Assembly: GCA_005223125.1 (NCBI GenBank)
Contig: NJBH01000030.1
Span: 1-49,817 of the forward strand
Origin: Promethearchaeota archaeon Loki_b32
GTDB lineage: Archaea; Asgardarchaeota; Lokiarchaeia; Sigyniarchaeales; SOKP01
Length of the DNA stretch: 49,817 nt
Reading direction: 5' to 3'
A program made the translations under genes and the position numbers. Below, piece after piece: positions 35,741 to 47,583 of this stretch. The notes below the pieces were generated by a model. It saw nothing but the letters and a program-made list of their open reading frames with translations. It was not told where the DNA came from and made no database searches. Positions within the stretch are counted from its first letter, which is position 1; every line of letters begins with the position of its first letter.

Positions 35741-35871
35741 TGGGAGGGGGGGGATTTGTTCGAGGTCCCCGATACGAGAGCCCGTTGAACCCCCGACCCC
35801 TTGGTCCCAAACCAAGATTCACGCCGTAGAGAAAAACTCTACAGTATCATACCAAGCTAGACCACCCTCCC
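35741..35871 (-). tRNA. tRNA-Pro(TGG) with two non-canonical BHB introns (25/26: 35845-35818, 28 nt; 58/59: 35784-35756, 29 nt)
   Basis: Spliced 74-mer GGGAGGGTGGTCTAGCTTGGTATGAT/TCTTGGTTTGGGACCAAGGGGTCGGGGGTTCAA/ATCCCCCCCCTCCCA gives a full cloverleaf with discriminator A and no encoded CCA; a T-tract follows. Confidence 0.95.
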
Positions 35872-46170: not shown

Positions 46171-46395
46171 ATAGGACATTAATATCCATTTTAAATATCT
46201 TTTGTTTTTTTGCAAGATTCCATAATAAAAATCTTAATTTCGAAAACCGATATGTATGTCTTTTAAATCATTGAGGTTTTCAATAAACAAATTTTATATT
46301 TTGTATAATGTTTTTTTCAATATCAATAAAAATTAAATTAATTAAAGTGATATAAAATTTCCTTCGATGAATTAAGTAAAAAATTAGCAGAGTTT

Positions 46396-47583
46396 ATGAA
46401 AAATATAGAAGAAATTGAGCTCCAAGATGTAGATTTATTCGCAGAATATCTGGAATTTCAAATGTTACCAAGCATAGTTCAAGCTGCCGCTCAAGCAGTA
46501 TTACCAGGAGTTCCTGGAAAAGCTGAGTGGACACCTGCCAAATTCTCACTTGATTTGGATTATCCCGGGAAAATCGAGACAATTGAATTTATTCGCTCAA
46601 ATGGTAAAAAAGCTACTATCGGTGGAGAAGTTGTCCCTCCCTTCTATAACTTTTTGGGACTTGAGAAAAGAAATCCTAATCCTCCGCTCGTTACGTATGA
46701 CGTATTTGATATGGGCGCAAAAATGATGCTTCCAAAACCTATTAAACAAGAATATGGCGAAGTATTAGGAGACCCTGCCGAATGGGCGAAGTTTGCTGTT
46801 GATAAGTTTGGAGCAGAATGCATAACATTCCATTCATTAGAGATCGATCCTGCGATGGGTGATGCTCCAGTTTCACAATCCAGAAAATTTTTAGAAGATA
46901 TTCTTCAAGCTGTTGATGTTCCTGTCATAATTGGTTGCTCAGGAAACAAGAAGAAAGATGTTGAGATGTTTACTGAATTAGCAGCTATCTCCGAAAGTGA
47001 AGTTTTGATGTTATCCGCGGCAGATAAGGCTACATGGGAGGAGGTTATCCCTCTAGCAGTCAAACATGATCATAACTGCTTACTTTGGACCAGTTTAGAT
47101 CTGAACAACCAAATTAAGATGAATAAGGATGCTCTTGAATTAGGATTACCCAGAAACCGTATTGTCATGGACCCAACAGTATGTGCATAATTCATGCAAT
47201 ATATTGGGAAATGCGCGACACTCGGTTATGGGATGGAGTACAGTTTCAGTATTTATCAAAGAATGCGCGTTGCTGGATTATTAGGCGAAACTGATTTAGC
47301 TTACCCAATAAGTGGAGGAACAACAAATGCATGGGGAGCACGTGAGGCATGGATGAGTGAAAAAATAGCACCTGAATGGGGATTACGCCAATATCGAGGC
47401 CCCATATGGGAAATCCTCAATGCTTTAGCTTTATGCACAGTAGGCATTGATCTTTGTATGATGTTCCATCCAGTAGCCGCAAAACATGTTAAAGAAATAA
47501 CTTCTCAATTTTTCGCAGAAGTTCCAAAAGTTTTAGACGATAAAGGTTATTATGATTGGGTTTCAGCAAATTTGAAACGTTAG
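46396..47583 (+). CDS. cdhD: Acetyl-CoA decarbonylase/synthase complex delta subunit, interrupted by a 33-nt BHB intron; join(46396..47177,47211..47583) = 384 aa (may start at ATT 46357)
   Basis: YPGKI, IGGE..PFY, DVFD, DPAEWAK, AVDVPVIIGCSGN..KD, IVMDPT|CATLGYGMEYS, TTNAWGAREAWM, RGPIWE, MFHP. Confidence 0.9.
47178..47210 (+). other. Putative BHB-type (tRNA-endonuclease-spliced) mRNA intron
   Basis: CCCA|AC^A|GTATGTGCAT-AATTC-ATGCAATATAT|TGGG|AA^A; contains an in-frame TAA. Confidence 0.85.

Follow-up and report, generated by a model that had tools for sequence, protein, structure and literature searches.

A putative tRNA-type mini-intron interrupts cdhD in a Loki archaeon and has candidate counterparts in other core protein genes

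The window, meaning the whole stretch of 49,817 nt that was analysed, carries cdhD on the forward strand at 46396-47583 as two same-frame open reading frames of 264 aa and 129 aa with a TAA between them. Database records enter the gene as two separate proteins of these lengths. cdhD is single copy in the genome, which was assembled into 71 contigs (95.5% complete, 4.6% contamination), and encodes the small subunit of an enzyme that is key to carbon metabolism. An intron-less orthologue, 92% identical, passed the TIGR00381 (CdhD) cut-off (350.9 against 252.9), and the labels of named relatives are mostly Promethearchaeota (Loki group of Asgard archaea). The gene stands alone at its position; cdhE-like and cdhC-like genes lie on contigs C44 and C24, and both matches have open frames. 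Several relatives carry extra copies of the cdhD 3' end downstream of the gene (L209 at 2200-2230, L238, weak matches), and an apparent 490-nt insert in L209 was rejected as a repeated gene end.

An earlier note on this DNA had given the joined product as a 384-aa CdhD. The protein is probably 397 aa long, starting at an ATT codon at 46357, which adds 13 conserved residues (46357-46395) ahead of the first ATG at 46396. The codon at this start is ATT in 43 relatives, ATG in 5 and ATA in 4, and the peptide encoded from it is conserved among them. The gene is read as follows, where BHB stands for bulge-helix-bulge.

46357..47177, forward strand: cdhD exon 1, with a probable ATT start (ORF listing and homologue comparison)
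47178..47210, forward strand: predicted BHB mini-intron of 33 nt, with an in-frame TAA at 47188-90 (register, independent DNA and same-site relatives)
47211..47583, forward strand: cdhD exon 2 (ORF listing, register and selection on the exon)

Refolding reproduced the arrangement described in the earlier note around the insert, namely a central helix of CCCA (47172-75) with UGGG (47205-08), bulges ACA (47176-78) and AAA (47209-11), and a hairpin. Its elements are listed below.

47172..47178, forward strand: exonic 5' strand of the 4-bp central helix together with the 5' bulge; cleavage predicted between bases 47177 and 47178
47205..47211, forward strand: intronic 3' strand of this helix together with the 3' bulge; cleavage predicted between bases 47210 and 47211
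47179..47204, forward strand: intron hairpin of 10 bp with a 5-nt loop; the loop-proximal 4 bp are invariant among carriers and the lower stem is variable
47155..47227, forward strand: exon-exon outer helix in its full extent, pairing 47163-66 with 47217-20 as well as 47155-59 with 47223-27, and using synonymous codon positions

The archaeal BHB pattern consists of a central helix of 4 bp and a bulge of 3 nt on the 3' side of each of its strands, and it is flanked here by the 10-bp intron stem and by an exon-exon stem that is broken near the bulges and extended further out. The outer helix had been called weak, which holds next to the bulges but not further out, where the two blocks of pairs listed above form. 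The insert region folds with a z-score of -2.33, and equally good folding was seen in 3 of 200 shuffles. Cleaving each bulge behind its second base would restore the coding motif, and the same holds at two other cdhD sites. Only 2 of 15 removals of 33 nt restore MDPTCATLGYG, 47178-47210 and 47179-47211, with identical product, and the BHB cut is the first of these. This motif is present in every one of the 120 intact homologues in the protein search listing, and none of them has the 11 additional residues of the window gene. The length of 33 nt, the single hairpin and the ends (AG..AA or GT..AA) do not match those of group I, group II or spliceosomal introns. Rfam returned no match in the window, and no second copy of the intron was found in the genome. 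A sigma-70-like site over the intron was rejected as being at chance level.

Homologous inserts were found at the same place, site 782 of cdhD, in L134 (31 nt), L135, G062 and L267 (32 nt), and G076 (33 nt). The exons of these carriers are about 80% identical to the window cdhD, and their genes are without stops once the insert is removed. The central helix has 4 of 4 pairs in five of the six site-782 carriers and 3 of 4 in L134; L134 and L135 have an imperfect stem beside the 5' bulge. Two exon-exon pairs at third codon positions are both Watson-Crick in 6/6 carriers compared with 4/82 non-carriers, a count that is not a formal test, as the carriers are kin and L134 and L135 were found by a flank-fixing pattern, the other four without it. 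In L267 both of these synonymous pairs have changed in compensating fashion, the kind of change that the earlier note had proposed to look for among relatives. Covariation in the site-782 alignment of five sequences was no higher than in shuffles.

These carriers bear directly on whether full-length CdhD could arise by translation alone. The window insert is 33 nt long, in frame and has an ATG (47194) after its stop, which is compatible with stop read-through, ribosomal bypass or synthesis of two chains. However, the lengths of 31, 32 and 33 nt cover all classes modulo 3, which rules out read-through; the 31- and 32-nt inserts shift the frame, and the next ATG there lies beyond the conserved LGYG. 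Bypass lacks a matched pair of take-off and landing codons, inserts occur at three different cdhD sites, the extra residues are missing from the listed homologues, and the exon-exon pairing of the carriers is needed by none of these routes. Translation without splicing is thus very improbable. A cdhD killed by insertion is slightly less probable again. The in-frame stop, the two short protein records and the lack of a cdhD match in some relatives would fit a pseudogene, but dN/dS is at most 0.08 in both exons between the four carriers compared, indicating purifying selection, even though these carriers differ at 60-74% of synonymous sites (pS 0.6-0.74, pN 0.05-0.13 in both exons; intron-less pairs are alike). 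The same kind of insert also occurs in the single-copy uL11 gene of this genome and in an EF-2 gene of a relative. An assembly artefact is a negligible prospect despite the fragmentation and contamination of the assembly, because a 144-nt contig from DNA run X6 of a separate study (P3) covers 47116-47259 with 0 differences, so that the insert is real DNA as the earlier note supposed, and because homologous inserts are present in five other assemblies.

The genome encodes RtcB and two EndA paralogues, alpha at C18:184174-184782 and beta on C2 near 78500. The best solved match of EndA alpha is Aeropyrum pernix EndA, and the protein retains the catalytic Tyr/His/Lys together with the Lys and Arg of the broad-specificity loop, residues as named in PMC3241643. 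Judged by these residues, the host enzyme is of the broad-specificity (αβ)2 type, predicted to be able to cut relaxed motifs. A tRNA gene in the window carries a similarly built intron.

35741-35871, reverse strand: tRNA-Pro(UGG), missed by ARAGORN and Rfam

Its T-loop intron of 29 nt (35756-35784) has a perfect central helix and the same build as the cdhD intron. As tRNA-Pro carries a 29-nt BHB intron, the cell must already excise such introns. A second insert of about 27-28 nt lies between the D-arm and the anticodon stem of this tRNA. ARAGORN reported only 15 tRNA genes in the genome, and its 831-nt tRNA-Lys intron on C49 was rejected as probably false, since it overlaps a 255-codon ORF.

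In the mechanism that we propose, exon 1 of the transcript would pair with the 3' end of the intron to form the 4-bp helix and two 3-nt bulges, a fold held by the intron hairpin and the longer exon-exon stem. The (αβ)2 tRNA-splicing endonuclease would cut each bulge behind its second base, and ligation of the exons by RtcB would yield an intact CdhD subunit of the CdhD/CdhE corrinoid iron-sulfur protein. With sequence, fold, register, conservation, selection and enzyme genes as the observations, we infer at a probability of about 0.9 that the insert is a BHB intron that EndA cuts and RtcB joins in the cell, yielding full-length CdhD. An EndA/RtcB-type intron in an Asgard cdhD mRNA, the central proposal of the earlier note, is thereby strongly supported by comparative evidence.

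A genome-wide, motif-only BHB scan gave 1381 matches compared with 1557 for decoys. The BHB motif alone therefore proves nothing, the case rests on comparisons, and inserts were sought motif-free by ORF alignment. About 1,700 ORFs were aligned against 2.0 Mb of one relative; as this DNA-level census is noisy, it was restricted to inserts with conserved protein on both sides. It returned 7 frame-breaking inserts, all of 28-33 nt, with BHB scores of 10.8-14.2 (six at 12 or above), whereas 24 frame-preserving indels scored 0.2-10.8. The count of 7 is a lower bound, because introns common to the comparison genome are invisible. The acyl-CoA dehydrogenase and GTPase inserts have 3 of 4 central pairs.

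Census genes: cdhD, uL11, an aldolase-family gene, an acyl-CoA dehydrogenase, a small GTPase, a zinc-ribbon/LOR gene and a 95-aa protein with no Pfam match
G000 C57:12438 (L243): predicted BHB intron of 28 nt in uL11, frame-shifting (census and family comparison)
G000 C24:174991, C36:188607, C32:33921, C60:2422 and C63:17590: five further BHB-like frame-breaking inserts of 29-30 nt

The uL11 gene is a single-copy ribosomal protein gene, and a same-site intron is present in 25 of 135 family genomes. Among 15 distinct 28-nt copies, pairing of the central helix holds in 60/60 cells and that of the inner stem in 112/120, compared with 0.27-0.62 when the pairing was slid as a control. An EF-2 gene of the relative used in the census (G023 C1:1382056) has a 30-nt insert with a stop and a perfect BHB motif. 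The same relative has a BHB-like insert of 32 nt in a short gene (C1:1097296).

Within cdhD itself, relatives carry unrelated inserts at spliced positions 651 (29-30 nt) and 791 (30, 32 or 36 nt), the latter 9 nt from site 782. Nearly all of these show, at the protein-restoring register, a helix of 4 bp with its two bulges, and at site 651 the central helix differs on both strands between genomes. An intron at one or more of the three cdhD sites was seen in 15 of the 114 family genomes that gave a cdhD match, several of the matches being partial. Carriers are dispersed over the cdhD tree with intron-less sisters adjacent, and a single clade per insert site was rejected with the flanking columns removed (p-AU ≤2e-41). 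Over parts of the gene, the closest relatives of the window cdhD reach 98-100% identity; among them L268 and L269 have no intron, and L271 and L272 have a different one at 791. Differences among these relatives are patchy and peak at the intron sites.

Two candidate signs of splicing were rejected. P0132, a protein with 98.9% identity to the spliced product, comes from a genomic allele that lacks the intron rather than from a spliced transcript, because its contigs have many synonymous differences on both sides of the junction and one contig runs 9 kb across the neighbouring genes. Joints that skip the insert came from DNA runs and derive from intron-less relatives. No RNA run was listed with this sequence, and two metatranscriptome runs from the same studies returned nothing for the region, a result that weighs neither for nor against splicing. 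The contigs of L230 (G137:C10) and L231 (G151:C83) both terminate 3 nt before site 791, where mixed intron-plus and intron-minus strains may have broken the assembly.

The patchy spread at cdhD is accompanied by shared flanks. Carriers compared with each other share 1.0, 0.70 and 0.66 of flanking synonymous bases against about 0.5 gene-wide, while a carrier and its intron-less sister share 0.40 locally against 0.67 gene-wide. A nested carrier lacks the local codons that its intron-less sisters have in common. Structural selection on the flanks, seen in the compensatory exon pairs, explains part of the shared-flank signal. Judged by these patterns, the intron probably moved between lineages within short recombined patches. 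We consider it less likely that the introns are old and vertically inherited, with flanks kept by RNA structure, patchiness due to many losses and no lateral gain. The compensatory pairs are real structural selection, sister pairs without an intron lose similarity near the site too (0.57 against 0.73 gene-wide, a smaller fall), and cbf5 offers a precedent of vertical descent with losses (PMC2738675). Against this, the rejection of one clade per site means that many losses would be required, the nested carrier and the carrier-sister contrast both point the other way, and a metagenome scan turned up no copy that lacks the intron but has carrier-type flanks.

No endonuclease ORF in or beside the cdhD introns was found among the ORFs of the carrier loci, where inserts are all 29-36 nt, and no long or endonuclease-coding version was found among the cdhD loci examined. 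A search with PF00078 found no reverse transcriptase in the genome, at 95.5% completeness. LAGLIDADG-like matches occur in short ORFs at G000 C56:3105, C57:28826 and C21:146857 (L223-L225), one of them beside a tRNA-Ala gene.

The earlier note had further suggested that the intron could be a regulated switch for expression of a Wood-Ljungdahl gene, in the manner of HAC1/XBP1. The non-spliceosomal HAC1/XBP1 intron of eukaryotes is a short, frame-controlling mRNA intron of conserved position, cut by stress-activated IRE1 rather than by a tRNA endonuclease and joined by a tRNA-type ligase. Both it and the cdhD intron control the frame, and nothing at cdhD indicates regulation or homology. The stop does make full-length CdhD dependent on splicing, and in Haloferax the processing of one 5' UTR by EndA seems important for expression (PMC7714728). 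However, most relatives have no cdhD intron at any of the three sites, alleles with no intron, with an insert at 782 and with one at 791 stand in near-identical backgrounds, and similar inserts lie in functionally unrelated genes. Because the pattern is patchy and multi-site, a switch is improbable, and the comparisons give the suggestion no support. The cdhD intron is most plausibly a passenger that the cell tolerates, one among several introns of this type in the genome.

A near known counterpart is the BHB intron in cbf5 pre-mRNA of Desulfurococcales and Sulfolobales (Watanabe 2002; Yoshinari 2006; Yokobori 2009, PMC2738675). Like cbf5, cdhD has a short intron in coding sequence, a relaxed BHB, cuts predicted after the second bulge base and a hetero-oligomeric EndA. 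The cbf5 intron is described as having one ancestral gain, a few losses and no sign of transfer, and its splicing was shown by cDNA (PMC2738675). Unlike it, the present introns are in an Asgard lineage, occupy three sites in one gene and at least 7 genes per genome, and vary in presence between near-identical relatives, with splicing deduced from sequence comparison. The HVO_1309 5' UTR of Haloferax volcanii (PMC7714728) likewise has a BHB in mRNA as a tRNA endonuclease substrate, a role that is predicted here; that BHB lies in an untranslated leader and interrupts no reading frame, whereas the cdhD intron does. The same paper called cbf5 the only other mRNA example as of 2020. Hairpin BHB introns in Thermoproteales 16S rRNA (PMC4496867) are similarly below 50 nt, without an ORF, patchy and found in close site pairs, 7-8 nt apart compared with 9 nt for 782/791. 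Those introns are in rRNA and are co-converted by a neighbouring homing-endonuclease intron, whereas no such endonuclease was found at cdhD. Non-canonical tRNA introns of Asgard archaea (PMC11291895; bioRxiv 10.64898/2026.10.13.758758) share the motif, the enzyme and repeated gains; the accessible parts of these papers treat tRNA only and report no protein-coding introns. The preprint found no general arrival route for Asgard tRNA introns and names their arrival as the central open problem.

In the literature searched, which covered few subscription journals, no report of BHB introns in Asgard protein genes was found; archaeal mRNA substrates of EndA were only cbf5 and one Haloferax 5' UTR, and Asgard intron work concerned tRNA or group II introns. 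The cdhD locus contributes a same-site series of inserts that shift the frame, exon pairs with compensating changes, and alleles that differ in having an intron while their backgrounds are near-identical.

Herein, our findings lead us to lean, somewhat less firmly than for movement at cdhD, towards a wider picture. Lokiarchaeia would harbour a hidden, changing set of ORF-less tRNA-type introns of about 30 nt in genes for core proteins, among them cdhD with its three sites, uL11, EF-2 and a small GTPase. The tRNA machinery would splice these introns, which would move between species in short recombined patches as minimal mobile mRNA introns. Archaeal protein genes are treated as intron-free except for cbf5. 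As cdhD is recorded as two short proteins, pathway reconstructions in Asgard archaea can miss intact genes. If splicing of the inserts does occur, the tRNA enzymes of Asgard archaea routinely process mRNAs for central metabolism and translation. That would have a bearing on the RNA processing in existence before eukaryotes, Asgard archaea being close prokaryotic relatives of eukaryotes. The intron-plus and intron-minus alleles in near-identical backgrounds offer a tractable system for how archaeal introns arrive.
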